Below are positions 6,765 to 47,609 of a stretch of DNA of 64,000 nt, piece after piece. A model generated the notes under the pieces. The model was not told where the DNA came from and ran no database searches. It was given only the letters and a program-made list of their open reading frames with translations. The stretch covers positions 1,587 to 65,586 of the forward strand of contig DUKY01000013.1 of assembly GCA_013329055.1 (NCBI GenBank), read 5' to 3'. The translations under genes and the position numbers were made by a program. How positions within the stretch are numbered: position 1 is the stretch's first letter; every line of letters starts with the position of its first letter. The DNA is from Nanobdellota archaeon (GTDB lineage Archaea > Nanobdellota > Nanobdellia > Pacearchaeales > GW2011-AR1).

Positions 6765-6983
6765 TCATTTCTTTTTATTTACTAGAAAATCTATTACATA
6801 TCCAAGACTACAAGCACCAAAATAAACAAATAAAATTGCTATAATTGGATATCCAATTTGGATAAATAATATAGAAGAAGAATAAAAACCTAGATTAAAA
6901 TAATTCTTTATATAAACTAAAAGTAAAATTAAAAAAAGAATTATTTTACTTTTACTATTAAGTTTTATTATTTCCAAATCCAT
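6765..6983 (-). CDS. small membrane protein
   Basis: 72 aa with two hydrophobic segments. Confidence 0.3.
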   Translation of the reverse strand: MDLEIIKLNSKSKIILFLILLLVYIKNYFNLGFYSSSILFIQIGYPIIAILFVYFGACSLGYVIDFLVNKKK

Positions 6984-7017
6984 AATCCTCTAAAGTTTAC
7001 CTCCCTTATAATTTTAT

Positions 7018-7367
7018 GTGATATCCAAGAAGGCTCAAAAAGATATCACCCTTCCATGTTTCGAAGAGATTCAAAAAGAACCAAGGGGTTCACATTCTAT
7101 GTGGCATCCACAGAGGCTCCGAAAGTTTACACTTGCATAATATTCTGAAAGCAAATTTTAAAAGTCGCAAGTGTGGGCTTGAGTTTAAAGATACCACCGA
7201 ACCGCAATTTAAGGAGATTCAAAAGAAACCAGCAGGTGTCTTTTACGCACGACAACATCAATTTCAAAAAACATAATTGTCGTGCTTGTGGCATTTACGA
7301 AGGCTCAACAAAATGCCACCGCTCCACAATTCGAGGAGATTCAAAAAGAACCAACGGGTTCTTTTTA
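7018..7367 (+). repeat. mosaic structured repeat block: A, an A interrupted by module C, B, A
   Basis: Hairpins gtgatatc/gatatcac (7019-7026/7042-7049) and gtggcattt/aaatgccac (7289-7297/7312-7320). Module C (7121-7185) sits between the halves gtggcatc (7102-7109) and gataccac (7191-7198). Module B is the gcacgacaa..ttgtcgtgc hairpin at 7246-7286. The block is near-identical to parts of 15124-15670 and 44326-44827. Confidence 0.9.
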
Positions 7368-8213
7368 TCCGAATATCAACCCAGCAATTGCCGAAATAAA
7401 GAAAGACATAAACATCAACCAGAAAGAATGTTTAACACCAGACTTAACTCCACCACCGGAAAGTTTACCTATCGCAAGACCACTAAAAAAACCTTGCACT
7501 AATAACAGATATAAAAATGAACCAGTAAAAGATTCACCTTGTGAACCATTACCACCAGCAACATTCGGGCTACTCAAACCTTGATTAGTAATATCACCGG
7601 TAAATGCAATACCTTCAACCAAAGGTAAAATTTTAAATTGCATAACCAAAATAATAATTGTAAAAACAAAAAAGATAATATAACCTTGAACAACTAATGC
7701 AGAAATATTTGCTTCTCTTTCTTTTCTCAACTTATCTGAAGTATTAACAGCACCAGCAACAGCCTCTAAAATTTCGCCAATATCTCCCCCAGCCCTTTCA
7801 GCCTGACCAATTAAAGTTATTGAACGAGAAATTGATTTATTCCCAATATCATCTGCAAAAGTCTTAAACGCAGTATTTAATGCAATACCCAAAAGGATTT
7901 GATTAGCTAATTTTTTAACATGTGGACTCAAAACACCATAAGACTTATCTTTAACATTAGTAATACTTTTACTAATAGGATTTCCAGCCTTAACACTTTC
8001 AACTAAATTCCTCGCGAATTCTAAAAACATTTGTTCTTTTTCCCGCTCAACACGAGTTTCATACATAATTCCCAATACAAAAGGCAAAACACCAACTAAA
8101 ACCGCAACACCCATCAAAACAAAAAAAGCTTTAGTCTCCATAAGATAAACAGCTAAAGCTAAGATTAAAATTGAACTTCCTATAGCGACCCAATGTATTG
8201 CGGTTGTTTTCAT
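7365..8213 (-). CDS. type IV pilus/archaellum platform protein, FlaJ/PilC-like T2SS-F domain (second half)
   Basis: 282 aa, polytopic, with one T2SF-like domain (..SISRSITLIGQAERAGGDIGEIL..). The last codons, FG-stop, lie inside the repeat block. Confidence 0.65.
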   Translation of the reverse strand: MKTTAIHWVAIGSSILILALAVYLMETKAFFVLMGVAVLVGVLPFVLGIMYETRVEREKEQMFLEFARNLVESVKAGNPISKSITNVKDKSYGVLSPHVKKLANQILLGIALNTAFKTFADDIGNKSISRSITLIGQAERAGGDIGEILEAVAGAVNTSDKLRKEREANISALVVQGYIIFFVFTIIILVMQFKILPLVEGIAFTGDITNQGLSSPNVAGGNGSQGESFTGSFLYLLLVQGFFSGLAIGKLSGGGVKSGVKHSFWLMFMSFFISAIAGLIFG

Positions 8214-8369
8214 TTTTTTTTTGTTTCCTCACTCCGTTAAAAATGAAAATTAGAAATTTCTAATTTCTTTATTTTCATTTTTTTTATTGTTTCCTCATTC
8301 AATAAAAATGAAAGCTAAAAATTTTTTCAAAAATTTTTTTGTTTTCATTTTTTTTCTTGTTTCCTCTTT
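8214..8369 (-). promoter_or_regulatory. triplicated ribosome-binding/start region with two mini-ORFs
   Basis: On the minus strand GAGGAAACAA-N-AAAAAAAATGAAAA occurs three times. The ATGs are at 8348 (17 codons, MKTKKFLKKFLAFIFIE), 8278 (13 codons, MKIKKLEISNFHF) and 8213 (the real gene, MKTTAIHW). Confidence 0.6.
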
Positions 8370-9773: not shown

Positions 9774-10006
9774 TTTAATGTTTGATCCATCCGTCCTTGG
9801 ACATCCAGAATATATTTTTTTAATTTATTAAACATTGCATAATCTTTTTTTTCATAAGACTCTTCCAGCCTTAATTCAGCTTCTTGCAAAGAATCAATTA
9901 ATTGACCCAAATAAATTGCTTTCTCTTCAGTTAAAATCGCCTCTTTCACCATTCTGTTTATTAAAGAATTATAATATAAAAAGGTTATGATATTATTCAA
10001 TACCAA
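9770..10006 (-). CDS. small coiled-coil protein (start possibly MVKEAIL at 9952)
   Basis: ORF between the ATPase and platform genes, coupled to the downstream gene by a 4-nt overlap. Confidence 0.3.
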   Translation of the reverse strand: MVLNNIITFLYYNSLINRMVKEAILTEEKAIYLGQLIDSLQEAELRLEESYEKKDYAMFNKLKKYILDVQGRMDQTLK

Positions 10007-11558: not shown

Positions 11559-12080
11559 TTAATCAACCTCAAAATCTAAGACGGTCAAATCATTTACTTT
11601 GCCCTCGTTAGATATAAATAATTTATAAGGAGTTGAACCTTTACTTAAAGTTTTTATAACATCCCCATTTTGAAATGTAAGGTTATACGCCTCACTATAA
11701 TCACTAGTCAAAGTCACTATATTAAGCTTTCCATTTTTTTCAGTATGAACTAAAATATCACCATAATAAATATCTTCTCCCGGTTCACTGTATGTATTTC
11801 TACTTTCAATTTCAAAAATTAATTTATCATTTTGTCCGTCGATCATTAAGATACCTTTTTTAATTCCTAATTCAATTTTACGTTTATTTCCTGCACCGCC
11901 ATGGACTAATGAAAGAACAATTGTATTAATATCCTCCATCATCCCAATAGACTGTTCAATAATAGCTTTATCTTGCATCTCTTCGACTTTAGGTTTAACA
12001 AAAGCTAAAACACTCCCGATCATAACAAAAGCGATTAAAGTATATATCACAGTTTCAACCCACACCTGACCTCTTTTCAT
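11559..12080 (-). CDS. type IV pilin-like protein (class III signal peptide)
   Basis: N-terminus MKRGQVWVETVIYTLIAFVMIG: a KRG-Q prepilin-type cleavage motif followed by a hydrophobic helix. Confidence 0.6.
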   Translation of the reverse strand: MKRGQVWVETVIYTLIAFVMIGSVLAFVKPKVEEMQDKAIIEQSIGMMEDINTIVLSLVHGGAGNKRKIELGIKKGILMIDGQNDKLIFEIESRNTYSEPGEDIYYGDILVHTEKNGKLNIVTLTSDYSEAYNLTFQNGDVIKTLSKGSTPYKLFISNEGKVNDLTVLDFEVD

Positions 12081-12301
12081 GATTAATTAAATAATATATC
12101 ATTTAAAAAATCTTCTAAAATTAAAAAAATAAAATTTTATTGGTCATAATAATTAATTTAAAAATAAAACAAATTTCTCGTCGATAATTTCAAAAAAATT
12201 GTTTTTCAAAAAGATTATTTAAAAATAATGCTCAGAAATTAAAATAAATTATACAAAAAATTTCATTCCACCAAAAGATTATTTAAAACCTAAATAAAAA
12301 A

Positions 12302-12808
12302 TTAAGAAAAAACAAAACAATTATCTATTGAAGTTAATTGATCAGATTCTTCACATTGTTGCTTCTTGATAATTGGAGCGATTTTTATTGCATCAGGCTT
12401 GCTGGTAACACCAGTTAAAACATAAGTTAAACCACCATTCTTAGAAGGTAATTTAATTAAATTAGTCCCAGAAGGATAATTCAAAACATTTGGAATAGTT
12501 TGTTCAACATTACTGATTTTCATGCTCGTTGTTGTTCCGACACTGGAAATCCCAATAACAATTTCATCAACATCAATATCTCCAATATTTAAAGAAAATT
12601 GAAATTGATTAGAAGATGAATTAAAACAAGTATATCTTCCATTAAGAGTAACCTGTTCAAAAATCCCAAAACAAGAACCAGATTCTTCTAACTCTGACCC
12701 AATCATATTATTGACTATTACCCACACAACAGAGACAGCCCCAATTACCATTGCAATCATAATAACAGTTGCGACAATTCCCGAAACACCACGTTTATTT
12801 AAAATCAT
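12302..12808 (-). CDS. archaeal type IV pilin
   Basis: N-terminus MILNKRGVSGIVATVIMIAMVIGAV, a class III signal peptide of the archaeal pilin N-terminal type. Confidence 0.7.
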   Translation of the reverse strand: MILNKRGVSGIVATVIMIAMVIGAVSVVWVIVNNMIGSELEESGSCFGIFEQVTLNGRYTCFNSSSNQFQFSLNIGDIDVDEIVIGISSVGTTTSMKISNVEQTIPNVLNYPSGTNLIKLPSKNGGLTYVLTGVTSKPDAIKIAPIIKKQQCEESDQLTSIDNCFVFS

Positions 12809-12825
12809 TTTGAATTTTTAAAAAT

Positions 12826-13284
12826 TTAAATATCTAATTGATAACCAACCTGTTTTTCACTACACATAAAAGTTCTTTGACCACTTTTTGAGTCACCGAT
12901 TAAAACAGGGATTAAAACTATTTTACTTCCACCTGAAACCTGAGAAGAAACATCTCCTGAATATGTTGCACCTTGATTTAATCCGGATGTTGGCCAACCA
13001 CTGCTTAAATCAACAGTTTGATAACTACCATCACTTAGAATTTTCATTTTCATTCCAAAGATTGGAACATTTCCTAAATTTGCAATATATAAAACACCAC
13101 TTGAATAACTTGCTTCAAAACTTACATCCATACAAACCAATTCAATATTCTGACCATCAAATTTTGTTATTGCTTCTTTAGTTAAACCTCTAAACCATAA
13201 AAAGATAATTAATGCAATTACAACAACCATTGCAATTAATAATACTGTTGCAATAACCGGCGATACACCTTTCTTTTTTTCCAT
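12826..13284 (-). CDS. archaeal type IV pilin
   Basis: N-terminus MEKKKGVSPVIATVLLIAMVVVIAL, a canonical archaeal pilin signal. Confidence 0.75.
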   Translation of the reverse strand: MEKKKGVSPVIATVLLIAMVVVIALIIFLWFRGLTKEAITKFDGQNIELVCMDVSFEASYSSGVLYIANLGNVPIFGMKMKILSDGSYQTVDLSSGWPTSGLNQGATYSGDVSSQVSGGSKIVLIPVLIGDSKSGQRTFMCSEKQVGYQLDI

Positions 13285-13331
13285 CTTATTTAATATAGTT
13301 TTTTTTACTTTTTAAATTTAATTGAAATTTT

Positions 13332-13880
13332 TTAGCATAATAATTCTTCTTTAATTCTTGAATTAGTACAGCTAACCATACGAGTTTTATCATTTTTATC
13401 CTTGCTGAAGATGATAGGAGTAATTGCTATTGAATAAATTGTTTCATTAAAAATATATCTATCAGTTTTATCCTCATTAATATTTAAAGTATTTTCGTTG
13501 CTTAATGCAAATAAAACTGCATGCTCAACAATTATACCCTGACCAATATCAAAATAAGAAGATAAATCAATAGTTGCTAATTCTTGATCTGGTTGATTAG
13601 CCCCGTGAATAAAATAACCGGCAACATTAAATCGCCCATTATTTTTTAAAGTAATATTCAAACTAGTTCCAGAACATTCAAATTCAGAAAGATAAATTGA
13701 AATACCCTCAGGGCAAGTCAAAGAATCAGCAGGAACATAAGTTTTCATCCATTGATAAACAATTGAACCCATAACAATTGCACCGGTAACTAATAAAATA
13801 TACCCAATCATAATACTGATACCTCTTTTATTTTTATTATTAATCATTTTAACCTTCAACAAAATATTTTTCACCTTCAA
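13332..13880 (-). CDS. type IV pilin-like protein
   Basis: NKNKRGISIMIGYILLVTGAIVMG motif near the N-terminus. Confidence 0.55.
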   Translation of the reverse strand: MKVKNILLKVKMINNKNKRGISIMIGYILLVTGAIVMGSIVYQWMKTYVPADSLTCPEGISIYLSEFECSGTSLNITLKNNGRFNVAGYFIHGANQPDQELATIDLSSYFDIGQGIIVEHAVLFALSNENTLNINEDKTDRYIFNETIYSIAITPIIFSKDKNDKTRMVSCTNSRIKEELLC

Positions 13881-14394
13881 TCTCTTGAGAGATTACAAAA
13901 TAAAAATAATCACCAGATTTTAAATCAATCGGATAAATTATTCCATCGATTAATACTTTCACTTCACGACCTTGAGGATAATAAGTTACTGCATCATAAG
14001 TCTGACCTTCAATTTCAAAAGTATGCATATCTGATTCAGAAGCTCCACCAAGATTTACCACAATATTGCCTGTTGTTTCCTGATAACCGGCAACAACAAT
14101 TGTTTCTTCATCTCCAAAAATAAAATATAAATTCTTGCCTTCACCTGCATAAATTGCATAAGATTCAGTAAAATTTTCAAGTAAAAGCTTAATCTCTGTT
14201 TCACTAAATTCATTATAAAAACCATAATCTAAAACTTCTCCGCTTTCAATTCTTAATTCTTCTCCAAGATCATAAAGATTAACAAAACTAGTTCTTTTTG
14301 AATAATTCAATACTGAAAAAAAACCAATCATCGATATAACTATAATTATTGCAGCAATTAAATAAAATTGTCCACGTTTATCATCCCTTCTCAT
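13849..14394 (-). CDS. type IV pilin-like protein
   Basis: N-terminus MRRDDKRGQFYLIAAIIIVISMIGFF. Confidence 0.55.
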   Translation of the reverse strand: MRRDDKRGQFYLIAAIIIVISMIGFFSVLNYSKRTSFVNLYDLGEELRIESGEVLDYGFYNEFSETEIKLLLENFTESYAIYAGEGKNLYFIFGDEETIVVAGYQETTGNIVVNLGGASESDMHTFEIEGQTYDAVTYYPQGREVKVLIDGIIYPIDLKSGDYFYFVISQEIEGEKYFVEG

Positions 14395-14439
14395 AATAAA
14401 ATAATTAATTTTAAGTTTATTAATGTTTTCATAGATTCA

Positions 14440-15081
14440 TTAAAAACACAAATCTCCACCAATACAGCAAAAAATTCCGTTATGTTTTACAATTTGCTCT
14501 AATTGAGGTAAAATATTTTCTTTTAATTTTTCTGCGGAATTTCTAGTTGCATTTAAATAATTATTACCGGTAACACGAAATTCTAACTCCGGAGAATTAA
14601 AAAGTTTAAAAGCTAATACTAAATCAAAATAATTTTTTGAAAAATAATCAATTAAACAATTTTCTTTTAAAAGATTGACCCGCAAAAAAGGAAAATTTTC
14701 TCCGGATAAATCTCCAACATCAACACCATAAATTTTCAAACCGGTTTTATCACAAGTATTATGCACAAACCTTGAAAACCAAGGTTCATATTCATTTGGA
14801 TATCTTGACGATTCAACATTTCCACTATTACAACCACAACCTAAATCTAAAATTATTTTTCCATTTAATTCATAATCTAAAATGTCTAAAACTAATTTCC
14901 ATTTTTTATTTAATGAAGAAACAATAAAACCTTTTTCCGGAAAAACATAATTTTCAGAGACAGATTTCAAACATCCATTATCAATCTCTTCAAAGATTAA
15001 ATTTCTTAAATTTTTTTTAGAATCCGATAAGTTATCAAAAGGATTCATAAAATAATTAATAGAATTTACAATCCGAACCAT
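14440..15081 (-). CDS. putative SAM-dependent methyltransferase
   Basis: ILDLGCGCN glycine-rich loop followed by an acidic residue pattern. Otherwise unassigned. Confidence 0.4.
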   Translation of the reverse strand: MVRIVNSINYFMNPFDNLSDSKKNLRNLIFEEIDNGCLKSVSENYVFPEKGFIVSSLNKKWKLVLDILDYELNGKIILDLGCGCNSGNVESSRYPNEYEPWFSRFVHNTCDKTGLKIYGVDVGDLSGENFPFLRVNLLKENCLIDYFSKNYFDLVLAFKLFNSPELEFRVTGNNYLNATRNSAEKLKENILPQLEQIVKHNGIFCCIGGDLCF

Positions 15082-15123
15082 TTTAATTTACTTTTTAAAA
15101 TAAATCAATTAATTAAACATTTG

Positions 15124-15670
15124 CAAAAAATGCCACCCTTCAAGTATTCGAGGAGGTTCAAAAAAAAACAAGGGGTGTCTTTTACGCACGACAACATCAA
15201 TTTCAAAAAACATAATTGTCGTGCTTGTGATATCCAAGAAGGCTCAAAGAGATGCCACCCTTCAAGTATTCGAGGAGGTTCAAAAGAAACCAAGGGGTGT
15301 CTTTTACGCACGACAACATCAATTTCAAAAAACATAATTGTCGTGCTTGTGATATCCAAGAAGGCTCAAAGAGATGCCACCCTTCAAGTATTCGAGGAGG
15401 TTCAAAAGGAACCAAGGGGTGTCTTTTACGCACGACAACATCAATTTCAAAAAACATAATTGTCGTGCTTGTGGTATCCACGAAGGCTCAAAAAGATATC
15501 ACCCTTCCATGTTTCGAGGAGGTTCAAAAGGAACCAACGGGTGTCTTTCATGCACGACGGAATTAATCCTAAAATATAATCGTCGTGCTTGTGGTATCCA
15601 CGAAGGCTCAAAGAGATGCCACCCTTCAAGTATTCGAGGAGGTTCAAAAGGAACCAAGGGGTTCCTTTTA
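15124..15670 (+). repeat. tandem array (about 4.5 units, 122-nt period) of structured modules A+B
   Basis: The landmark tgccaccc/tatcaccc recurs at 15131, 15253, 15375, 15497 and 15617, giving periods of 122, 122, 122 and 120. Each unit has hairpin 1 (GUGRYAUY/RAURYCAC, 16-nt loop), a second helix (ACCCUU..AAGGGGU) and the hairpin B gcacgaca/tgtcgtgc. The fourth B copy has the compensated stem cacgacg/cgtcgtg. Confidence 0.95.
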
Positions 15671-15705
15671 GTAGACTCTGAGGTTTGCTCATAATTAATA
15701 AAAAA

Positions 15706-15928
15706 GCTACCTTCACCCATTCTCAGCTCTGCTACCTGCTAAGCACCTTATCAAATGTTTAGGGCTGCTTGGTTCCCCACCTGACCCAGTTCGCATCTGC
15801 AAGATCAAAGCAGACAAAGCGTCAACGTCTGGAATAAAGACTTTTTTACGCATTAATCACGCCCCTCATTGCAGCTTGCCATAAAGCCCGTTTGCAATAA
15901 AGCGGAGGGCTAATCCGCTACCTAGTCT
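15706..15928 (-). ncRNA. signal recognition particle RNA (7S/SRP RNA), short form; ends approximate
   Basis: The minus strand reads ..CUGGGUCAGGUGG-GGAA-CCAAGCAGCCC.., matching the universal helix-8 motif (compare E. coli 4.5S GGUCAGGUCC-GGAA-GGAAGCAGCC). The segment is much more GC-rich than its surroundings. A TATA-like cttaaatagtataatt lies upstream and a T-run at 15700-15705 lies downstream. Confidence 0.75.
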
Positions 15929-15983
15929 ACAAAAATATAGAATAATTATACTATTTAAGATTAACTAAACCAGAAAACTCTTC

Positions 15984-18900
15984 TTATTTATTAGCTTCTT
16001 CAACAATCTTTGACTTAGCCAATTTTTTATCTTTTTCTTCCTTAACTAAAGGACCAACCACCTTAACAAATAATCCAGGTAACCCTGCACCAATTGGAAC
16101 AGGCTGGTTCAAAATAATATTTTCAATAACACTAGTCAATTTATCTTGAGTACCCTTAATTGAAGCATTAACAAATTGTTTATCCGGAGTTTCAAAAGTT
16201 GCCCTCGCTAAAATTGAAGATTTCTGAGTAATAATACCCATACGAGTTACACCCTTAACAATACCATTATCAGTCATAGCATCAGCAATTAACTTTGAAT
16301 GCCTGTAATCAATATCTAAACCTTGAGAATTTAATACCTCAACAACTTCATTAATAATTAATTGTCTGGCAGCCTCAATACCGAAAACTTTTGCAACTTC
16401 ATAAAAATCATTAGAGATTAATCTATATTTGTCAACTTCCTTTAACTTTAACATCTCCTTTAAATTTGTACCAAGAGTAATAATAACAAAATCCTTGTTT
16501 CGTTTAACAATTAAAATTTGTTTAACACCCTTAACACCAGAAATAATAGTTGCTTTAAGCTTCTCTTTTAATTTATAAATTTCCCTAAAACTATATTCAG
16601 AAGCATTCAAAGTAATTGAATCAGCTTGTTCATTAACATTAAATCCAAGATCATTTAATCTTTCAACAACTTTCTTAATAGTAGTATGAGTTTGTTTCAA
16701 TCCTTTTTTATCAATAACAATTTCAATTTTCTTGTTGCTAAAATCTAATTTAACTTCAGAAGAAATTTCTTTTAATGTAACTTCCTTGATTTTCTCAGCA
16801 AATACCCTTGCATTTCCTTCATTATTAAACTCTTTATCTAAATAAATTTCCATCTTCGGAGAAGAAGGAGTTTTTCTGGCATCAAAAATTTCAATAATTC
16901 TAGGTAAACCACTTGTAACCTGCATTTCAGCTACACCAGCCATATGGAAAGTGTTCAAAACCATCTGAGTTGAAGATTCACCAAATGACTGAGCAGTAAT
17001 AATACCAATAGCTTCACCCGGAGCAATTTGTCCGTCTTTATGAATTTGTGAAACATCTATACCATCATCGCCAAATTGGAATTGAATAATTCGATTATTA
17101 CTATCTCTTACAGTACCATCATATTCAACCCTTAAATCTTGTAAAGCATTAGCAAGTCTACGGTATAAATAACCAGACTTTGGAGTACGTAAAGCAGTAT
17201 CCATAAGTGAATCTCTACCAGTAATCGCACCAAAGAAAAATTCATCAGGTCTTAAACCTTTAATGAATGGACTATTAATAAATCCTCTAGCCTTTGGAGA
17301 TAAATCTCCTTTCTCGAAAAATGATAATGTTCTTTCATTATAACCTAAATCAATTCTTCCGCCACGTAATACCTGCTGACCAACACAACTAGCCATCTGA
17401 GTAATATTCAAAATATTACCACCACCACCAGACTTAATCATATGATTAACAGCGTTAGTTTCAAGGAATTCTTTTTTAACTAATGAACCAACCTTTGTTC
17501 TTACTTCATTTAATATCTTCAAAATTTGAATCTCTCTTGATTCTTCCGCAGTTTTACCAGGAATAATTTCTAATTTACCAGCGTTATATAAATCTAAAGT
17601 TTCCTGAGTTTTTTCTTCAGCATCCTGAATAATTTTTTTACCGGCATCAACAACTCTCTTATCCAAATTTAAATCCTCAACAGAAAGTGTAATACCCCTA
17701 TTTGATAAATAATTTTTACCTAAATTGAAAGCTTTCTTAATAGTTTCAAAAGTCTCCATTCTTCCAACAGTTTTATCTAACTCTTTGATAAGTTCCCCGC
17801 TTCCACCGCCAAATGCAGTTTTATCAATAATACCGCCGGTAATTTCACCTTTCTTAATAGTAATAGAATCATTTACAAAATCAATTTTTGGTAAAATTTT
17901 CGAAAATAATTCTAAACCAGAGATAGATTTTTTAGTGCATTCAAAATCAACACCAGATTGGAATAAAAGTTGATTTGCATCTTCTTTTGAAAATTCATGT
18001 CTACCCAATAAATATCCACCGGTAATAGCATCAACTTCACAACCCATAAAATTAGTATTGTTCTTCGGAGAAATTAAATTTTGTTTAACATCCAATAACA
18101 CTTTTGCTTCAGCTCTCGCTTCTTCAGTTTGAGGAGAATGAATATTCATTTCATCACCATCATAATCCGCATTATAAGGAGAAGCAACAGCAGGATGCAT
18201 TCTGAATGTTTTGCCTGGAAGAATCTTAGCATAGTGTGCCATTAAACTTCCTTTATGCAAACTTGGATGTCGGTTAAATAATACAATATCACCGTCCTGT
18301 AAATGTCTTTCAACTTTATATCCGACACTAAGCTCATTCATAATTTCTTCTTTCAATTCTTCAGTAATTTTCTTTCTTTTTCCATCAGTTCTAATAATAT
18401 AATTTGCTCCCGGATATTTATCTGCAGTTTCAATTAATTTTTTTAATTTTTCTAAATTTAACTCAGTAACAGTCTCGGCAACAGTAACAATTTTAGCAAT
18501 TTGGAAAGGAATACCAACTTCATTAATTTCAATTGATGGATCAGGAGAAATAACTGTTCTTGCTGAATAATTTACCCTTTTACCAGCTAAGTTCTTTCTT
18601 AATCTTCCCTCTTTACCCTTAATTCTCTCAGTAATAGTTTTTAATGGTTGACCGCTTCTATGTCTTGCAGGAGGAATTCTTGCAACACTATTATCAAAGA
18701 AAGTAGTAATATGGAATTGCAATAAATCCCATAAATCTTCAATAATAACTTCAGGTGCACCAGCATTCAAATTCTCCCATAATCTTTGATTTGCACGAAT
18801 AATATCAGAAAGTTTATGAGTTAAATCATCCTCACTTCTTTCCCCCGATTCTAAAATAATACTCGGTCTAACAGTTACAGGCGGAACAAGCAACATAGTT

Positions 18901-19469
18901 AAAATTGCCCACTCAGGTCTACAAGTTCGAGGATTAACCCCAACTTTTCTTAATTCTTCATCAGTAATATTCACTAAAATTTCTCTAATCTCAGTCGGGA
19001 AAACTCTTGTTTTATCTCGATAAAAACTAGTAGGCTTATCTAACTTAATTTTAACCTGCTCATTTTGACAGTGAGGACATTTTTTGCAATCTTTAGCTTT
19101 TTTTGCCCTTTCAGCAGGAGAAAGTTTGGTTAAAAATTTATCATCAAGCATTAACTTTCCACAATCACTGCAAAAACATCTTAAGCATAATTCAATTAAC
19201 GGAACATATTTCAAATGAATAACAGCCCTTGCCAAATCAATACTTCCAGGATGACCTAAACATTCTTTTATTCTTCCACCGCAAGTTCTACACCTAACAC
19301 CGGGATCAATTGCACCAAGTTTTAAATCCATTAAACCACCATCTACTGGATATCCGTCGATATTATATAATTCAGGAGTAACAATTTTTGCTGATGAAAG
19401 TCTTTTAATTTGTTCAGGACTAAGTAAAGTAAAATTCAATGCTCCAATCTTTTTTCTTATCGGTTTCAT
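15984..19469 (-). CDS. rpoA: DNA-directed RNA polymerase subunit A, with A-prime and A-double-prime parts in one ORF
   Basis: 1161 aa with an N-terminal zinc motif (CRTCGG..C.GH), the catalytic NADYDGDEMN (aa 433-442), and the bridge helix/trigger loop AQSFGESSTQMVLNTFHMAGV (aa about 826-846) in the same frame. Confidence 0.9.
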   Translation of the reverse strand: MKPIRKKIGALNFTLLSPEQIKRLSSAKIVTPELYNIDGYPVDGGLMDLKLGAIDPGVRCRTCGGRIKECLGHPGSIDLARAVIHLKYVPLIELCLRCFCSDCGKLMLDDKFLTKLSPAERAKKAKDCKKCPHCQNEQVKIKLDKPTSFYRDKTRVFPTEIREILVNITDEELRKVGVNPRTCRPEWAILTMLLVPPVTVRPSIILESGERSEDDLTHKLSDIIRANQRLWENLNAGAPEVIIEDLWDLLQFHITTFFDNSVARIPPARHRSGQPLKTITERIKGKEGRLRKNLAGKRVNYSARTVISPDPSIEINEVGIPFQIAKIVTVAETVTELNLEKLKKLIETADKYPGANYIIRTDGKRKKITEELKEEIMNELSVGYKVERHLQDGDIVLFNRHPSLHKGSLMAHYAKILPGKTFRMHPAVASPYNADYDGDEMNIHSPQTEEARAEAKVLLDVKQNLISPKNNTNFMGCEVDAITGGYLLGRHEFSKEDANQLLFQSGVDFECTKKSISGLELFSKILPKIDFVNDSITIKKGEITGGIIDKTAFGGGSGELIKELDKTVGRMETFETIKKAFNLGKNYLSNRGITLSVEDLNLDKRVVDAGKKIIQDAEEKTQETLDLYNAGKLEIIPGKTAEESREIQILKILNEVRTKVGSLVKKEFLETNAVNHMIKSGGGGNILNITQMASCVGQQVLRGGRIDLGYNERTLSFFEKGDLSPKARGFINSPFIKGLRPDEFFFGAITGRDSLMDTALRTPKSGYLYRRLANALQDLRVEYDGTVRDSNNRIIQFQFGDDGIDVSQIHKDGQIAPGEAIGIITAQSFGESSTQMVLNTFHMAGVAEMQVTSGLPRIIEIFDARKTPSSPKMEIYLDKEFNNEGNARVFAEKIKEVTLKEISSEVKLDFSNKKIEIVIDKKGLKQTHTTIKKVVERLNDLGFNVNEQADSITLNASEYSFREIYKLKEKLKATIISGVKGVKQILIVKRNKDFVIITLGTNLKEMLKLKEVDKYRLISNDFYEVAKVFGIEAARQLIINEVVEVLNSQGLDIDYRHSKLIADAMTDNGIVKGVTRMGIITQKSSILARATFETPDKQFVNASIKGTQDKLTSVIENIILNQPVPIGAGLPGLFVKVVGPLVKEEKDKKLAKSKIVEEANK

Positions 19470-23427: not shown

Positions 23428-23553
23428 GAACCTATAGCTCAGTCTGGTTAGAGCGCCGGTCTTATATGAACTTAATCCATTTAGGATTATTTTATCTCAA
23501 TAGATACAGTCTAAGAGAGCCGGAGGCCCTGAGTCCAAATCTCAGTAGGTTCA
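23428..23553 (+). tRNA. tRNA-Ile (anticodon UAU) with a 51-nt intron at the canonical 37/38 position (23467-23517)
   Basis: Manual fold. Acceptor gaaccta/taggttc; D arm gctc-agtctggtta-gagc; anticodon stem ccggt/gccgg; loop c-t-TAT-a. A central 4-bp helix cuua/uaag flanked by 3-nt bulges (ua|u and ag|a) forms a bulge-helix-bulge. T arm ctgag-tccaaat-ctcag; discriminator a. No CCA is encoded. Confidence 0.8.
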
Positions 23554-27708: not shown

Positions 27709-30270
27709 ATGAAAACAAAATTCATTCCAATTGACTACGATTACTTTGATTTTAAAGGAAGAAATTACATTAAAATAATTGGCAGAGACGACAATCAAAA
27801 AAGAATTTGCATTATTGACACCTGCAAAGTTTACCTCTGGGCAATACTTGAAGAAAATTTAAAAAAAGATCAAATTGAAAAAATAATCGATAAAATAAAA
27901 AAAATAAAAATTGAATTAAAGGGAAGAACAACAAAAATTGATTCAGTTGAACTCCATGAAAAAAATTTCATGGGAAGAAAAGTTAAAGCACTCAAAATTT
28001 TTGCAACAAACTATAAAGATCTTCACGATGTCGCAGATAAATTAGACATTAAAGAAATAACAAATAGAAGGGGATATGATTTAGGATATATTACACATTA
28101 CATAATTGAAAAACAAATTAAACCTCTTAATTGGTATGAAATTTCAGGAGAAGTTTTAAACAATTCATTAGAATTTGGAGGAATTGATATGGGACTTGAC
28201 GTTGACATTTGTATAAAACTTGAAACTTCAAAAGAAATAAAAGACCAGCAATTTAATCCAAAAATTTTAGCTTATGACATTGAAACAGATGAATTACAGA
28301 TAGGCAAAGGAGAAATTTTAATGATCTCATTAGTCAGCGAAAATTTCAAAAAAGTAATTACATGGAAAAAACCTCAAAATTTACAAAAACATCGTGACAT
28401 TACAGGAGGCTCAGAAAAATGTCACCGTTCAGAACTTCGAGGAAGCTCAAAAGAAACCAGCGGGTGTCTTTTAGAATCTATAGAATTTGTAAAAGACGAA
28501 GCAGAACTAATAGAAAAATTTATAGAACATGTAAGAAAAATTTCTCCGGATTTTTTAGTAGGTTATTATTCAGACGGATTTGATTTACCATATATTCAGG
28601 CACGGGCAGAAAAGCATAAAGTAAAACTAGCACTGGGGTTAGATGATTCACAACCCAGATTTTCAAGAGGGATAGAACTCACAGGAAAAATAAAAGGAAT
28701 CACACATATTGACATATTAAAATTCATCAGAACAGCATATGCCCAATATATGAAATCCGAAACACTTTCATTAAACGAAGTTGCAAAAGAATTTTTACAG
28801 GACACGAAAATTGATTTTGAATTAAAACACTCTTCAAAAATAGAAGACCATAATTGGGAGAAGTATTATGAATATAACTTACAGGATTCAATTTTAACAT
28901 TAAAACTTTTCGAAAAGTTTTGGCCGGATTTATTAGAATTTACAAAGATAACAAATGAACCAATCTTCGATTTATCACGTGCAGGATTATCAAAATATAT
29001 GGAATCTTATATCTTGCAAAACTTAAATAAATTTAATGAAATCCCACAAAAAAGACCTGGATACAATGAAATAAAAGAAAGGCAATCAAGTGGTGGAGTA
29101 GAAGGAGCATTTGTCTTAGAACCCAAACCAGGACTTTATGAAAATATCGCAATGTTTGATTTTACATCTATGCATACAAGTATAATCATAACACACAATA
29201 TTTCAGGTTCAACTTTATTAGAAAAAAAAGAAAAAAATTGTTTTGAATCCCCTGAACTGGAATTGCAGGGAAAAAAAACAAAATTTTATTTTTCAAAAGA
29301 AAAAGGATTTTTCCCGTCATTATTAGAAGAATTATTTAACAAAAGAAAACAATATAAAGCAGAATATAAAAAAAATAAAAATTCAATTACACTTGCAAGA
29401 AGTAATGCATTTAAAGTTCTTTCAGCTTCAGCACACGGCTATTTAGGATTTTTTGGAGCACGATATTATTCTATTGAATCTTCAGCATCAGTCTTAGCAT
29501 ATGTAAGAAAATTTAATATAGAGACAATAGAAAAAACAGAAAAAAAAGGATATCAGGTGATTTATGGCGATACAGATTCAATAGCATTTTTAATGAATGG
29601 AAAAACAAAAGAAGAAATAAAAGAATTATTGCAATACTTAAATGACGAACTTCCGGGAGTAATGCATTTAGAACTTGAAGGATTTTTTAAAAGAGGTTTG
29701 TGGGTAACTACACGAGGAGGAACAACAGGAGCAAAGAAAAAATATGCCTTGCTTGATGAAGAAAATAATTTGAAAATAAGAGGATTTGAAACAGTAAGGC
29801 GTGATTGGTGCAGATTATCCCGGGACATACAAAATAAAATTATAAGACAGATATTAAAAGACGGGAATGAAATCAAAGCTCTTGAATCTGTCAAAGAGCT
29901 AATTAAAAAAATTAAAGAACGAAAAATTGACAAAAAAGATTTAATGATTAGAACACAACTAAAAAAACCAATTTCAGAATATAAAGCTATTTCACCGCAT
30001 GTTATCGCCGCGAAAAAAATGAAAGAACAGGAAATCCCGGTTACACAGGGAGATTTAATAGAATATTATATAGCTGAAACAGAAAACAAAAAAGCAAAAC
30101 TTGTTAGAGAAAAAGTAAAACTTCCAAATGAAAAAGGAGAATACAACATTGAATATTATCTTGAAAAACAAATTTTACCGGCAGTAGAAAATATTTTTCA
30201 TGTATTTAAAATAAATATAAAAGAAATAATTGACGGAAAAAAGCAGGATAATTTAAATAAATGGTTTTAA
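27709..30270 (+). CDS. polB: family B DNA polymerase
   Basis: 853 aa with Exo I LAYDIETDE, Pol A DFTSMHTSIIITHN, Pol C VIYGDTDSIAF and a C-terminal PIP box QDNLNKWF. Confidence 0.95.
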   Translation: MKTKFIPIDYDYFDFKGRNYIKIIGRDDNQKRICIIDTCKVYLWAILEENLKKDQIEKIIDKIKKIKIELKGRTTKIDSVELHEKNFMGRKVKALKIFATNYKDLHDVADKLDIKEITNRRGYDLGYITHYIIEKQIKPLNWYEISGEVLNNSLEFGGIDMGLDVDICIKLETSKEIKDQQFNPKILAYDIETDELQIGKGEILMISLVSENFKKVITWKKPQNLQKHRDITGGSEKCHRSELRGSSKETSGCLLESIEFVKDEAELIEKFIEHVRKISPDFLVGYYSDGFDLPYIQARAEKHKVKLALGLDDSQPRFSRGIELTGKIKGITHIDILKFIRTAYAQYMKSETLSLNEVAKEFLQDTKIDFELKHSSKIEDHNWEKYYEYNLQDSILTLKLFEKFWPDLLEFTKITNEPIFDLSRAGLSKYMESYILQNLNKFNEIPQKRPGYNEIKERQSSGGVEGAFVLEPKPGLYENIAMFDFTSMHTSIIITHNISGSTLLEKKEKNCFESPELELQGKKTKFYFSKEKGFFPSLLEELFNKRKQYKAEYKKNKNSITLARSNAFKVLSASAHGYLGFFGARYYSIESSASVLAYVRKFNIETIEKTEKKGYQVIYGDTDSIAFLMNGKTKEEIKELLQYLNDELPGVMHLELEGFFKRGLWVTTRGGTTGAKKKYALLDEENNLKIRGFETVRRDWCRLSRDIQNKIIRQILKDGNEIKALESVKELIKKIKERKIDKKDLMIRTQLKKPISEYKAISPHVIAAKKMKEQEIPVTQGDLIEYYIAETENKKAKLVREKVKLPNEKGEYNIEYYLEKQILPAVENIFHVFKINIKEIIDGKKQDNLNKWF
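28375..28473 (+). repeat. module A copy inserted in frame in polB
   Basis: Hairpin gtgacatt/aatgtcac (28394-28401/28418-28425, 16-nt loop acaggaggctcagaaa) followed by ccgttcagaacttcgaggaagctcaaaagaaaccagcgggtgtctttta. It is translated as ..GGSEKCHRSELRGSSKETSGCLL... Confidence 0.85.
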
Positions 30271-33648: not shown

Positions 33649-33779
33649 GCTCTGCCCAGAGTTTTTGATTTTAGCTAACTTTTGGCAATTCAAATATTTA
33701 TTAAGGGCGGGCCTTTCGACAAATGTCGAAACTTGAAGTGGGAATCCTAAAATCAAAAAAACCTAATTCTGGACAGAGC
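33649..33779 (+). repeat. module D copy bounded by imperfect inverted repeats (MITE-like)
   Basis: The left arm gctctgcccagagtttttgattttag (33649-33674) is the imperfect reverse complement of the right arm ctaaaatcaaaaaaacctaattctggacagagc (33747-33779). The core is ttggcaattcaaatatttattaagggcggg-[tttcgaca-aa-tgtcgaaa]-cttgaagtgggaatc. Confidence 0.8.
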
Positions 33780-33824
33780 CGACCAAACAGATTCTTTAAA
33801 AAAGGGATTATTCTTAATAATTTT

Positions 33825-34913
33825 ATGAGTTTTCAAAAAATACCGGAATTAAAACCATTATATTTGGAAAGAATAACGTCAATATTAAACAACAAAGAAG
33901 ATTTAAAGAAATATTTAGAAATCTTAAAAATTCAACCTGTTAAATCAATTAGATGTAATACATTAAAAATTTCAGTTGAAAAATTAAAAGAAGTTCTTGA
34001 AAAAAAAGGATGGGTTATATCTCAACCATGGAAAGACTTTCCTGAAGTAATGATTGTTGAAGGTAAACTTCAGGATTGTGGCATTACAGGAGGCTCAACA
34101 AAATGCCACCGTTCAGACCTTAGAGGAAGTTTGAAAGAAACCAGCGGGTGTCTTTCACCTGAAGTAATGATTGTTGAAAATCAATTAGAACCTGGAGAAT
34201 TAGGTCGGTCACTAGAACATTTATTAGGTTATTATTACATTCAGGAACTTTCAAGTATGTTGCCAGTAATTGCACTTCAACCAAAAGAAGGAGATATCAT
34301 TTTAGATTTATGTGCCGCACCGGGAAGTAAAACAACACAAAGTGCATCTTTAATGCAAAATAAAGGAACAATAATTGCAAATGAAGTAAATATGGGAAGA
34401 TTAATGGTTTTAGCATCAAATCTTGAAAGATGCGGAGTAACAAATACAATAATCTCAAGAAAAGATGGATCAGCATTATGCAAAAAATTCGCAAATGGAG
34501 AAATCAAATTTGACAAAATTTTAGTTGATGCACCATGTTCAGGAGAAGGAACATTAAGAAGTTCAAGACAAACTTATCTTATGTGGAATATAAAAACAAT
34601 CCAGCAATTATCAAAATTACAAAAACAATTATTCAAATCAGCATTCGAGATATTAAAAATAAATGGAGAAATGATTTATTCAACCTGCACTCATGCACCG
34701 GAAGAAAATGAAGAAATTGTTAGTTGGGCATTAGAGGAATTTAAAGACCAAATAAAAATTGAAAAAATTAATTTGCCAATAAAACCCAGACAAGGATTAA
34801 CAAAATGGGAAGATAAAGAATATTTCGAAGAAGTAAAATATAGTTGCAGAATTTATCCGCAGGATAACAATACAGAAGGATTTTTTCTTGCAAAATTCAA
34901 AAAAATAAAATGA
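33825..34913 (+). CDS. NOL1/NOP2/Sun-family RNA cytosine-C5 methyltransferase
   Basis: DLCAAPGSKT, ILVDAPCSGEGTLR and IYSTCT motifs. The start is trimmed to MSFQKIPEL (ATG 33825) because the upstream extension lies in repeat D. Confidence 0.85.
   Translation: MSFQKIPELKPLYLERITSILNNKEDLKKYLEILKIQPVKSIRCNTLKISVEKLKEVLEKKGWVISQPWKDFPEVMIVEGKLQDCGITGGSTKCHRSDLRGSLKETSGCLSPEVMIVENQLEPGELGRSLEHLLGYYYIQELSSMLPVIALQPKEGDIILDLCAAPGSKTTQSASLMQNKGTIIANEVNMGRLMVLASNLERCGVTNTIISRKDGSALCKKFANGEIKFDKILVDAPCSGEGTLRSSRQTYLMWNIKTIQQLSKLQKQLFKSAFEILKINGEMIYSTCTHAPEENEEIVSWALEEFKDQIKIEKINLPIKPRQGLTKWEDKEYFEEVKYSCRIYPQDNNTEGFFLAKFKKIK
34041..34178 (+). repeat. module A copy inserted in frame in the methyltransferase gene, flanked by a 21-bp direct duplication
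   Basis: cctgaagtaatgattgttgaa occurs at 34041-34061 and again at 34158-34178 (offset 117 nt, 39 codons; the protein shows PEVMIVE twice). Between them lie the hairpin gtggcatt/aatgccac (34078-34085/34102-34109) and ..aaagaaaccagcgggtgtctttca. Confidence 0.9.
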
Positions 34914-44325: not shown

Positions 44326-44827
44326 AAAAATTTAATTCTACAAATTTTCTGAGAGAACCAACAGATTCACATTCTATGTGGCATCCCAAGAAGGCCGAAA
44401 GTTTACACTTACATTAATCCCAAAGGTAAAGATAAAAGCTGTAAGTGTGGGCTTGAGTAGAAAGTTTACACTTGCATTAAATTCTGAAAGCAAATTTTAA
44501 AAGTTGCAAGTGTGGGCTTGAGTAAAGATATCACCGCTCCGCAATTTGAGGAAGCTCAAAAGACCAAGGGTGTCTTTTACGCACGACGACATGAATTCTA
44601 AAATATAATCGTCGTGCTTGTGGCATCCAAGAAGGCTCATAAAGATGCCACCCTTCAATGTTTCGAGGAGGGTTAAAGGGAACCAAGGGGTGTCTTTTAC
44701 GCACGACAACATCAATTTCAAAAAACATAATTGTCGTGCTTGTGGCATCCACAAAGGCTCATAATGATGCCACCGAACCGCAATTCGAGGAGATTCAAAA
44801 AGAACCAACGGGTTCTTTTTATCCGAA
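44326..44827 (+). repeat. large mosaic repeat block: H fragment, an A interrupted by two tandem C modules, then B, A, B, A
   Basis: The stem halves gtggcatc (44378-44385) and gatatcac (44527-44534) are separated by C copies at 44397-44458 (stem acacttac/gtaagtgt) and 44459-44523 (acacttgc/gcaagtgt). The following B hairpins are cacgacga/tcgtcgtg and cacgacaa/ttgtcgtg. An intact A hairpin is gtggcatc/gatgccac at 44620-44627/44644-44651. Confidence 0.9.
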
Positions 44828-47173
44828 ATAACTATTATCCTGAGGAATCGCAGCCCTTGCTGACTCTAAGAATTTATCCTCAATCTTTTTATAAGTTTCA
44901 ATAGTAGATTTACTCACGCTAGGCTTAACCTTTTTCAAAGCCTCATCAAAATGTTTTTTCCAAACTTCAACAGCATCAACAGATTCTCTTAAAGCAAGCA
45001 TCGCAGCCTCCCTAACTAATGCTTCCAAATCAGCCCCGGTATAACCTTCAGTTTGTTTAGCAAGTTCACTAATAATAACATCTTTTGCTAAAGGAGTTTT
45101 AACAGTATGAATATCCAAAATCATCTTCCTACCTTTTTCAGAAGGAGCATTAATAAGCAAAATTTTATCAAATCTTCCGGGACGTAAAATTGCAGGATCC
45201 AATAAATCAGGACGATTAGTAGTTGCAACAATTAAAATATCCTTTAAATCTTCTAAACCATCCATATCAGATAATAATTGATTCAAAACTTTCACCCCCT
45301 CTTGACCTGACGCATTGTCAACCATACCACGCTTACTAGCGATTGACTCAATCTCATCAATTAAAACGATACATGGTGAAACTTGTCTCGCTTTCTCAAA
45401 AACTTTAGCAACACCCTTATGCGAATCATTAACCCATTTACTCAATAATGAAGGACCCTTAACGGAAATAAAATTAACATCAGATTCTTTTGCAGCCGCC
45501 TTAGCCAAAAGAGTTTTACCTGTACCAGGAGGACCATAAAGTAAAACACCTTTAGGAGGACGAACATTCAATCGCTTAAAACCTTCAGGATGTTTCATAG
45601 GCCATTCAACAGCTTCTTTTAATTCCCTTTTAACATCATCAAGCCCACCGACAGAATTCCAATCAACATTTGGAGTTTCAACTAAAACTTCCCTCATAGC
45701 AGAAGGTCTGACAACTCTTAAAGCATCAGTAAAATCCTGTGCAGTAATAACTAATTTTTCCAAAATTTGCGGGGAAATTTGTTCTTCAGAATCAAGTTTC
45801 ATCTCAGGCAGTAACTTTCTTAAAACATTCATAGCAGCTTCCTTGGTTAATGATTCCAAATCTGCACCAACAAATCCGTGCGTAACTTGAGCAAGTTTAA
45901 CTAAATCAACATCTTTAGTTAAAGGCATGCCACGAGTATGAATTTTTAAAATTGCTAATCTACCTTCTTTATTAGGAACCCCAATTTCAATTTCTCTATC
46001 AAATCTACCAGGACGTCTTAAAGCAGGATCAATAGCATTAACTCTATTCGTCGCACCAACAACAATAACTTTACCCCTGGCCTTTAAACCATCCATCATA
46101 GTTAAAATTTGAGAAACAACTCTTCTTTCAACCTCGCCATGAACCTCTTCACGCTTAGGAGCAATAGCATCAAGTTCATCAATAAAAATAATTGTCGGAG
46201 CAGTTTTTTCAGCTTCATCAAAAATATCCCTAATCTTTTTTTCACTCTCACCATAAAATTTAGACATAATTTCCGGACCATTTAACAAGATAAAATTTGC
46301 TTCAGATTCATTTGCAACAGCTTTAGCTAAAAGAGTTTTACCAGTACCAGGAGGACCATAAAGTAAAACACCTTTTGGAGGCTCAACACCTAACCGTTGA
46401 AAAATTTCAGGATGTTTCATCGGTATCTCAACCATTTCCCTAATTTTTTTAATCTCTTCACTTAAACCACCAATATCTTCATAATTAATTTCAGGGATAT
46501 TATCTGAACTAACATCAACTGCTTTAGAATTTAAAACTACCTCAGTATTCTCGGTAATTATCACAGGCAGACAAGGATTAGTTGAAACAACAATAAATCG
46601 AATTTGAGTAACACCCCCACCTAAATTACCCATGCCCATACCCCCTAAAATATCTCCAAGGTTGCCAAAAATATCATTTAAATCACCCATGCCTTCAGAC
46701 ATTAAATCTTTTCTTCTTTGCACACCCCCTAAAATTACAACATCTCCCTTAACCAAAGTTCTTCCTAAAAGTCCTCTTCGTAAACTATCAGGGTCTCCCT
46801 GAACCATAATTCCTTGCTGAGCAGGAGCAATAATAACTTTTTTTGCTTCATGAACATTCGCTTTAGAAATTTGAACAACATCGCCTAATCCTGCACGAGC
46901 ATTTTTTCTTAAAATACCATCAATCCTTATTCTTCCTTCACCAATATCTGCAGGATAAGACCTATCAGCAATAGCAACAGTTTCACGATTACCCTTAATT
47001 AAAATAACATCACCACGCTTAATGCCTAATTCCCTCATAACTTCAGAATCAATACGGGCAATTCCTTTATACGCATCATCCTGTAAAGCTTCTACAACAA
47101 TCAATTCAAATTTTTGATTTTTACTCTTGCTGTTATCTGCTTTTTTATCTTTATCTTTATTCTTATCTTTCAT
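44819..47173 (-). CDS. cdc48: CDC48/VCP-type AAA+ ATPase (paralog 2)
   Basis: 784 aa with GPPGTGKT twice, an N-domain ([16 protein letters not shown]) and a Gly-rich insert ([11 protein letters not shown]). The last codons, YFG-stop, lie in the repeat. Confidence 0.9.
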
Positions 47174-47606: not shown

Positions 47607-47609
47607 GAA

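Follow-up and report, generated by a model that had tools for sequence, protein, structure and literature searches.

Modular repeats that cluster and insert into one another are known in bacteria, among them the BOX, RUP and SPRITE elements (PMC3049150) and the RPE of Rickettsia (PMC10969869). BOX, in Streptococcus pneumoniae, is a small AT-rich composite with stem-loops and a tandem internal boxB whose copy number varies between strains; it is enriched downstream of genes, shows a coding and strand bias, and forms clusters with RUP and SPRITE in which the elements are mutually inserted (PMC3049150; PMC10969869). SPRITE elements resemble terminators and are concentrated at the 3' ends of genes (PMC3049150), and RPE are hairpin repeats of about 100 nt that lie between genes and also in frame in unrelated housekeeping genes, to which they add a peptide (PMC10969869). 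Here we analyze a 64,000-nt stretch of contig DUKY01000013.1 (the window), ordinary chromosome of a Pacearchaeota-like DPANN archaeon, in which a tandem array of an 81-nt module A and a 41-nt module B lies against the gene for the RNA of the signal recognition particle (SRP). With a probability of about 0.6, we read this array as a locally amplified, hypervariable cluster of a dispersed family of selfish, mosaic, non-autonomous and structure-dependent repeats. We favor this reading because the family is dispersed on a single strand, turns over at a fixed junction, has recurrent nesting and break points, flanking hairpins, in-frame insertions, positions at gene ends and a structure under selection, and matches no Rfam family.

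In its way of working the family resembles BOX: modules A and B, together with two further modules, C and D, make up a composite with stem-loops, (A-B)n runs of 2 to 5 units occur at homologous loci, and the modules nest in one another. The likeness is one of description, as homology is not expected across domains between a Firmicute element and an archaeal one. Terminal inverted repeats and short target duplications connect BOX with an insertion sequence (IS) transposase, whereas A lacks such inverted repeats and the duplicated flanks here are long hairpin-forming segments. In-frame copies in essential genes, which we observe, are not a hallmark of BOX. They recall RPE, in that A stands in frame in the genes for a family-B DNA polymerase (PolB) and an RsmB/F-type methyltransferase, with protein domains on both sides and with insert-free orthologues in existence. 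RPE, however, are bacterial, about 100-150 bp long and form no modular tandem arrays, and only 2 of the approximately 13 window copies of A are inside genes. To our knowledge, a recurrent insert at one site with compensatory hairpin evolution, as in PolB, has not been described for RPE.

REP/BIME clusters and IS200/IS605-derived palindrome-associated elements consist of hairpin units in mosaics with other short motifs at gene 3' ends; they are strand-specific and depend on the hairpin rather than on terminal inverted repeats. The present family shares the mosaic hairpin clusters, the gene 3' ends and the strand-specific orientation. Inside a BIME the orientation of the REPs alternates; REPs have GTAG at the 5' end and depend on RAYT (Y1) transposases, and IS200/IS605 elements insert 3' of a fixed tetra- or pentanucleotide without target duplication; here, in contrast, units are co-oriented, flanks are duplicated, left flanks are heterogeneous, and no Y1 (HUH) transposase was found among the approximately 50 window open reading frames (ORFs) scanned with Pfam. 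Group IIC introns and IS1397-type elements insert at the 3' side or in the loop of a DNA stem-loop rather than at a sequence, much as A lies directly 3' of a hairpin. They are autonomous, one to several kilobases long, code for the enzyme they use and leave the hairpin unduplicated, whereas A has 81 nt and is non-coding in the usual sense. Like classical miniature inverted-repeat transposable elements, the family is small, multicopy, non-coding, strongly base-paired and non-autonomous; it differs in that A is without terminal inverted repeats and without a short target duplication of fixed length (21 bp and about 54 bp are seen). We regard the family as interspersed mosaic hairpin repeats, an apparent archaeal counterpart to BOX, BIME and RPE.

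The array and the dispersed family

Tandem Repeats Finder places the array at 15130-15670, with a period of 122, 4.5 copies, 91% matches and a score of 877. A module map that combines an nhmmer profile, a covariance model of A and reading of the sequence extends it to 15126-15670 and resolves five A and four B copies, head to tail on the plus strand, each unit being an A followed by a B (81 + 41 = 122; Table 1). The map agrees with the original prediction of a 122-nt array of this composition. The truncated A at its start begins directly after the flank ...TTGCAAAAA. Pairwise identity among the A copies of the array is 85-99%; units 1-3 are 99-100% identical, and unit 4 and the last A have diverged. 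The source is probably a short-read assembly, and with units 1-3 near-identical the copy number may be under- or over-estimated. The motif GARGGYTCAAARA is present twice in each 122-nt unit, as had been noticed. The spacer before the array has a position that would fit the promoter region of gene 14440..15081.

The array does abut the 3' end of the minus-strand SRP RNA, which overlaps its final two bases. The match to RF01857 (89.1 bits) falls just below the gathering score of 96.5 bits, and the bacterial small-SRP model RF00169 exceeds its own gathering score at 15730-15816. The array is not specific to the SRP RNA: the same modules form arrays at two other places and occur elsewhere as single copies. 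The link between the array and the SRP RNA is positional only and the neighborhood coincidental; the 3' end of this RNA is one of many "safe" landing or retention sites.

Modules A and B, with nested C and D, recur at approximately 10 further places in the window, all on the plus strand. Two motif patterns have 12 and 10 window matches, again all on the plus strand, where shuffles predict 0. Neither repeat searches nor the covariance model found an inverted A in the window, and modules B, C and D are likewise on the plus strand only. The plus orientation holds both between minus-strand genes and inside plus-strand genes. Together with allied repeat modules, these copies occupy about 3.5 kb, or about 5.5% of the window. 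The last TTA of the second cluster is the TAA stop of a minus-strand T2SSF-like gene (7365..8213), and the last TTA of the third is the TAA stop of a CDC48 gene (44819..47173).

Table 1. Modules of the array, its neighbors and further copies in the window
Feature	Position	Strand	Basis
A, truncated (model positions 23-81)	15126-15184	+	nhmmer; covariance model at 15131-15184, 46.8 bits
B copy 1	15185-15225	+	perfect 9-bp hairpin GCACGACAA-21 nt-TTGTCGTGC with short linkers, 41 nt in total
A copy 2, full length, 81 nt	15226-15306	+	covariance model, 96.6 bits
B copy 2, identical to copy 1	15307-15347	+	sequence identity
A copy 3, 99% identical to copy 2	15348-15428	+	covariance model
B copy 3, identical to copies 1 and 2	15429-15469	+	sequence identity
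A copy 4, diverged (85-86% identity with the remaining full-length copies)	15470-15550	+	covariance model
B variant, GCACGACG-loop-CGTCGTGC	15551-15589	+	both stem sides changed relative to copies 1-3
Terminal A, "3'-hairpin type", AAAGGAACC-AAGG-GGTTCCTTTTA	15590-15670	+	covariance model, 99.9 bits; fold
AT-rich spacer, about 43 nt	15082-15125	.	between array start and start codon of minus-strand gene 14440..15081
Archaeal SRP RNA gene	15669-15932	-	Rfam RF01857 (Archaea_SRP), 89.1 bits, E 2.5e-20
Second cluster: A, C nested in A, then A-B-A	7017-7367	+	nhmmer, repeat searches
Third cluster: D, C, C, A-B-A-B-A	44313-44821	+	Tandem Repeats Finder, nhmmer
Partial A with nested D, which holds a further nested hairpin	26637-26793	+	covariance model
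Module D copy and A 3' remnant	43622-43693	+	repeat/module search
Module C copy nested in another host motif (TAAGGGCGGG-hairpin-CTTGAAG)	40025-40089	+	repeat/module search
Single A in the exonuclease domain of the PolB gene (27709..30270)	28393-28473	+	covariance model, 94.6 bits; Pfam
Single A (34077-34157) in a linker of the RsmB/F-type methyltransferase gene (33723..34913)	34041-34178	+	Pfam, sequence

Module structure and turnover, between and within genes

Module A opens with a hairpin of 8-9 bp (GTGRYATC, a 16-nt loop, GATRYCAC) whose loop carries GGAGGCTCA. Its 3' part forms either a long-range helix (CACCN...N'GGGTG) or a 3' hairpin, and A always ends in ...CTTTTA; the 3' boundary of the element always coincides with a T-run on the plus strand. 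We based the helix and covariation analysis on an alignment of 36 full copies of A. In this alignment the 5' hairpin is 97.7% paired, with 3 covarying pairs, and pair 35-70 of the second helix occurs as CG 14 times, as GC 13 times and as UA once. The observed covariation score was reached by 0 of 500 shuffles, and in slid controls pairing drops to 37-53%. The hairpins of A are kept by compensatory changes. The loop motifs are conserved too; the two ends of the module, TGTGRYAT... and ...GGGTGTCTTTTA, are not mutually inverted.

The break points of partial A copies lie at model positions 21/22 and 60, the first directly following GGCTCA and the second TTCAAAA. Nested modules are found in A at these places: module C, which is a hairpin (...ACACTTGCA...TGCAAGTGT...), follows GGCTC, and module D, which has two hairpins, follows CTCAAAA. 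D in turn contains further modules. Because modules nest and copies break at those two places, the twice-per-unit motif would mark nesting and recombination hot spots of the family. The original prediction held that the motif's arrangement would suit a repeated binding site; hot spots explain it better, and binding may occur in addition.

Within 14900-16100, an Rfam search at E <= 1 returned only the SRP RNA and a chance IS009 match, and across the window only tRNA and SRP exceeded their gathering thresholds. The covariance model of A detected diverged copies in the PolB genes of other Pacearchaeota, and no Rfam family matched. We rejected a C/D-box or H/ACA sRNA, as no RUGAUGA/CUGA arrangement was seen by eye and there was no Rfam match. 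Derivation from SRP RNA (Alu-like) or from tRNA was also rejected, the local alignment score being 18 against a shuffle 95th percentile of 20-21. In the literature, we found no prior description of such a family for DPANN or Pacearchaeota.

We searched genomes, metagenomes and viral contigs with a strict 33-nt pattern representing the 5' hairpin of A. It matched 1 of 185,579 species-representative genomes (Candidatus Nanoarchaeia archaeon SMAG_U8054) and 41 metagenome stretches, with no exact match in viral contigs. The single genome match reflects the strictness of the pattern, because the covariance model detects the diverged PolB copies mentioned above. Across the window and the loci of relatives (numbered with the prefix L), nhmmer gave 136 matches, and the family is seen in independent assemblies from NCBI, JGI and ENA.

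Two relatives share the SRP junction. L038 is syntenic with window positions 5950-18079 at 94-96% identity, with an SRP RNA 99.6% identical, and L021 with 15532-19167 at 96.7% identity, its contig stopping within the array; at the junction, the SRP RNA of both is 98.5-99.6% identical to that of the window. L038 has two A copies there but lacks B; C and D are both nested in the first of these A copies. L021 has a third arrangement with another terminal A. The three agree at all 30 flanking SRP bases, whereas the terminal A differs at about one-quarter of positions. The clusters at 7017 and 44313 undergo the same turnover in L009 and L016, and at another, homologous locus L030 has 5 A-B units against 2 in the locus L003 of a metagenome-assembled genome (MAG). 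These copy numbers derive from metagenome assemblies in which near-identical tandem units may be collapsed. The contrary expectation raised with the original prediction, a drift of copy number and sequence among close relatives, is borne out in good part, as copy number and composition change completely between flanks 94-97% identical. Neutral drift alone does not account for the change, because the hairpins are kept by compensatory changes.

The same comparison bears on the terminal hairpin (GGAACC-AAGG-GGTTCC), which had been proposed as a terminator of the SRP RNA. It occurs in the window only; the arrays of L038 and L021 end in ...GGGTGTCTTTTA or ...GTCTTTCA and have no hairpin. A simple scan for the bacterial-type consensus terminator found 0 sites in the array region, and on these two grounds an intrinsic terminator of the SRP RNA, with a conserved GC-rich hairpin and a T-run directly behind the RNA 3' end, is not supported. 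All three junction variants keep a T-run on the minus strand about 25 nt past the end of the SRP RNA, and of such a terminator they share only this run of about four T.

The copies in PolB and RsmB/F are read in one common frame, 81 nt being 27 codons; Pfam domains lie on either side, and the ORFs stay open. In RsmB/F, direct repeats of 21 bp, CCTGAAGTAATGATTGTTGAA, border the copy at 34041 and 34158 (spacing 117 nt, or 39 codons), so that PEVMIVE is encoded twice. Orthologues identify PEVMIVEGK as host sequence and show the RsmB/F linker to be variable. A bulge-helix-bulge intron, which would have two 3-nt bulges on either side of a 4-bp helix at its boundaries, was considered and rejected: on inspection, the RsmB/F junctions have no CCAC partner for GTGG beside the flanking helix, and the inserts are always open in frame.

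We compared 107 PolB orthologues of 68-80% identity. The loop at the insert site has 9-13 residues in 86 of them and 20-46 in the other approximately 21, many of the enlarged loops carrying an A-like peptide, ...RRS..RGSSKETSGCLS. Roughly one Pacearchaeota orthologue in ten to one in five has a related insert in this loop, and the closest orthologue (80% identity) has none. All seven inserts examined are in frame and free of stops, whereas the same frame is closed in 28 of 35 copies of A outside genes, which suggests that the in-gene copies are translated and not removed.

At the DNA level, six insert-bearing PolB genes retain the 5' hairpin with differing sequences while the encoded peptide changes. 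Its arms are GTGACATT/AATGTCAC, GCGACTTC/GAAGTCGC, GCGGCTTT/AAAGCCGC, GCGACTTT/AAAGTCGC, GCGACTTT/AAAGTTGC and, in L057, GCGACTTC/GAAGTCGG with a mismatched closing pair. The 3' hairpin of the "terminal type" covaries as well (AAAGGAAC/GTTCCTTT versus GCGAGAGAA/TTCTCTCGC). Because these hairpins are kept by compensatory change while the peptide changes, selection acts on the nucleic-acid structure of A. The covariance model scores the distant PolB copies at 21.9-75.2 bits and found no other A in about 75 kb of distinct sequence around the distant PolB genes. The intergenic expansion looks specific to the clade of the window.

Array growth, placement and rival explanations

A typically lies immediately 3' of a hairpin-forming segment, which is often repeated directly on its 3' side. 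In the array this segment is module B (...TTGTCGTGC-TT-(A)-C-GCACGACAA...), and at other sites it is host DNA of 21 to about 54 bp. With B as the flanking hairpin, the array becomes (hairpin, A)n and its period of 122 the sum of 81 and 41. We compared the sequences next to A on its two sides in 44 distinct contexts; in 12 of them, the two share a perfect complement of at least 7 nt (permuted pairs: mean 3.1, maximum 7). Among these 12 are B-A-B and host segments of the RsmB/F gene, L015/L047 and L030. The host segment of L030 is a 54-bp hairpin (TTTTTGAAG...CTTCAAAAA), comprising the last 12 codons of a gene, its stop codon and about 15 nt beyond; it is present four times, three copies being 98-100% identical and the fourth 85-87%. 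Each precedes a different variant of A, and these variants are 70-93% identical. The same layout is found in L015/L047 (GCAGCTT...AAGCTGC), L019, L044 and the RsmB/F gene (CCTGAAGT...ACTTCAGG). The rule is not universal: the PolB site in the window has a weak, offset inverted repeat and L052 has none, and many sites of A have no recognizable flank duplication.

From these end products, we tentatively suggest that A joins at the base of a hairpin or inverted repeat and duplicates the hairpin, a route we hold to be plausible rather than probable. Staggered or structure-specific cuts at both stem bases, or template switching at the hairpin, could produce the duplication, and each newly made hairpin would serve as the next target. 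Whole units might then be multiplied by unequal recombination or slippage, which would explain the 99% identity of units 1-3. Clusters may be remodeled by recombination or nesting at the hot spots after GGCTCA and TTCAAAA. Two tandem layouts in relatives may be noted beside these: in L050 (6033-6478) A alone is repeated with an 83-nt period, joined by TCACATTCTA(T), and in L030 (1029-2130) the alternation of host hairpin and A is followed by five A with B between them at a 119-nt period.

Many clusters lie at gene ends. Of approximately 55 clusters, 24 end -2 to +5 nt from an ORF boundary, and 9 provide a convergent gene with its TAA stop codon through their terminal TTA. In about 80% of cases the 5' neighbor is encoded on the other strand, and all copies lie on one strand in 6 of the 7 contigs that have several loci. 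At the orientation switch in L041, the four larger ORFs that separate copies of opposite orientation gave no Pfam match to Orc1/Cdc6, and GC skew around the switch tracks gene orientation only. Such placement is consistent with a strand-linked process combined with retention of copies at harmless sites. The element would persist at the least harmful positions: directly behind a stop codon or the end of an RNA gene and ahead of a following promoter, or within protein surface loops, where it keeps the reading frame. If it also furnished the convergent gene with a stop codon or T-run, this would be a secondary effect.

Several points weigh against the reading of the array as a cluster of selfish repeats. 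No clean pair of filled and empty sites was recovered for a recent insertion, and integration with hairpin duplication is deduced from end products. Among the window ORFs scanned, Pfam found no mobilizing enzyme (no transposase, integrase or reverse transcriptase). A has no terminal inverted repeats, and its duplications, long and of variable length (21 to about 54 bp), are unlike classical transposase products. Copy numbers rest on metagenome assemblies that may collapse near-identical units. The conservation of the PolB hairpins across lineages about 70% identical exceeds what is expected of dead junk and would also fit an RNA or DNA function at the level of the host, and the uniform orientation could also reflect selection at the level of transcription. 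In a less likely and more novel alternative, A would be a new type of hairpin-targeting, hairpin-duplicating mobile element, or a functional PolB cis element that has proliferated, its 81-nt fold being selected even inside the PolB frame across deep Pacearchaeota lineages. A new type of element would need a structure-specific enzyme, and we know of no described transposon that integrates at the base of a hairpin and duplicates it.

The main rival, unlikely but with real support from the covariation, above all inside PolB, is that the modules are genes for structured non-coding RNAs. A plus-strand transcript would end at the terminal T-run and be cut into A or A+B units, whose GGAGGCUCA and GAGGARYUCAAAA loops would be offered to a partner, either a protein or an RNA, with the units working as a sponge, a scaffold or a regulator. 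The strong compensatory covariation in two helices, the PolB hairpins with their changing peptides, the conserved loop motifs, the plus-strand T-run ending every element, the uniform orientation and the recovery of distant copies by the covariance model all speak for such RNAs. They are difficult to reconcile with the complete difference in composition and copy number at one locus between relatives, with stop-free copies inside ORFs in a frame otherwise mostly closed, and with arrays that start in truncated units and therefore have no conserved 5' end or promoter. Modules are, moreover, nested at the very loops proposed for binding, and no Rfam family matches. A dedicated RNA gene tied to the SRP RNA is thus probably not what the array represents. 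We consider it improbable that A is a domesticated 3'-end cassette, supplying on the minus strand a TAA stop and a GGTTYCTTTT terminator to the convergent gene or SRP RNA and insulating the next promoter. The stop codons and ORF boundaries at cluster ends would suit this role, as would the minus-strand T-run retained in all three SRP-abutting variants and a six-T run in antisense B, and the pneumococcal SPRITE elements offer a precedent (PMC3049150). One module would suffice for it, however, which leaves the multi-unit arrays, nesting and in-gene copies unexplained, and selection against harmful positions predicts the same distribution. The hairpin proposed as terminator is not conserved and the bacterial-type scan is empty, although archaeal terminators need only T-runs.

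Retroposition of a small RNA, in the manner of a short interspersed element, has little to recommend it beyond the constant T-run at the 3' boundary and the long, variable target duplications. An RNA that stops at the T-run would be copied into DNA at the insertion site by target-primed reverse transcription; yet the window ORFs scanned include no reverse transcriptase, no similarity to SRP RNA or tRNA points to a source gene, and neither the strict strand uniformity nor the finding that the duplicated segments are hairpins with A at their base is predicted. We give almost no credence to a CRISPR-like repeat, a coding repeat or an assembly artifact, in spite of the regular period and the plus-strand ORFs of about 105-112 amino acids that run through 2.6 units of the array. 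The first reading of the locus had already set CRISPR aside, with good reason: the "spacers" would be B copies, which are identical in units 1-3 and have relatives at other loci, the family being a dispersed one, and the Pfam scan of about 50 window ORFs gave no Cas domain. It had also dismissed coding because the period is not a multiple of 3. This stands for the array as a whole, where a 122-nt period shifts the frame at each unit and conservation of the hairpin is not accompanied by that of the peptide, but not for A alone, which is in frame in two genes. Against an artifact stand the independent NCBI, JGI and ENA assemblies; only the exact copy number is exposed to assembly error.

DPANN archaea have very small, streamlined genomes. 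Repeats nevertheless make up the share of the window given above and turn over between strains about 95% identical, and selfish or structured DNA appears to live in frame in an essential replication enzyme. The family points to hairpin-directed, hairpin-duplicating building of tandem arrays. Such arrays break metagenome assemblies, L021 ending in this one, and are open to confusion with genes for non-coding RNAs or with CRISPR-like loci; they could serve as strain markers.

Other features of the window and its relatives

The genes of the window include those for RNA polymerase B and a fused A subunit, PolB, FEN1, Trm5, RsmB/F, two CDC48, AlaRS and deoxyhypusine synthase, among others. The fused subunit is a minus-strand ORF of 1161 residues (15984-19469) with Rpb1 domains 1-5, in which RNA polymerase A' and A'' are apparently joined. 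Beside the third cluster, a PIN-domain gene (Pfam) lies on the minus strand at 43700-44276, and a small ORF upstream of it looks AbrB/SpoVT-like by eye (MVIKVKVKKWGNSIGIILPKE...); the two are probably a toxin-antitoxin pair.

Other repeats accompany the family. The motif TAAGGGNGGG-hairpin-CTTGAAG(-GGGAATC) occurs on the plus strand at 27137-27170, 33702-33738 and 39988-40024, with 0 occurrences expected, and in the third copy (39988-40024) module C is inserted directly after CTTGAAG. A composite of several hairpins, about 600 nt long and with other modules nested within, is found at 47600-48215 and 27470-27660; pieces of it are dispersed in the related MAG loci L001, L008 and L010 at 85-93% identity. 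Between two T2SSF-like membrane protein genes lies a 65-nt tandem repeat of 2.4 copies (8204-8366), for which overlapping BLAST matches in L009 and L043 suggest a different copy number. Unique AT-rich sequence of about 350 nt fills 49968-50319 of the window, in place of the approximately 670 nt of repeat modules in L010 (358-1030) and L035; the flanks are 86-96% identical to those of the relatives, which indicates replacement of the whole segment.

A further repeat is associated with an intron-containing tRNA of 126 nt (23428-23553), which Rfam found and ARAGORN missed in the region 23428-23990. The 3' end of this tRNA and a hairpin (ATAATATTGCTTTGCAATATTAT) are repeated at about 23770 and about 23965. 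These copies flank two 93%-identical copies of another repeat, which has a 121-nt core at 23581-23701 and 23812-23932, spaced 231 nt apart. Here, too, the hairpin is duplicated around the repeat, a layout the same as that of module A.

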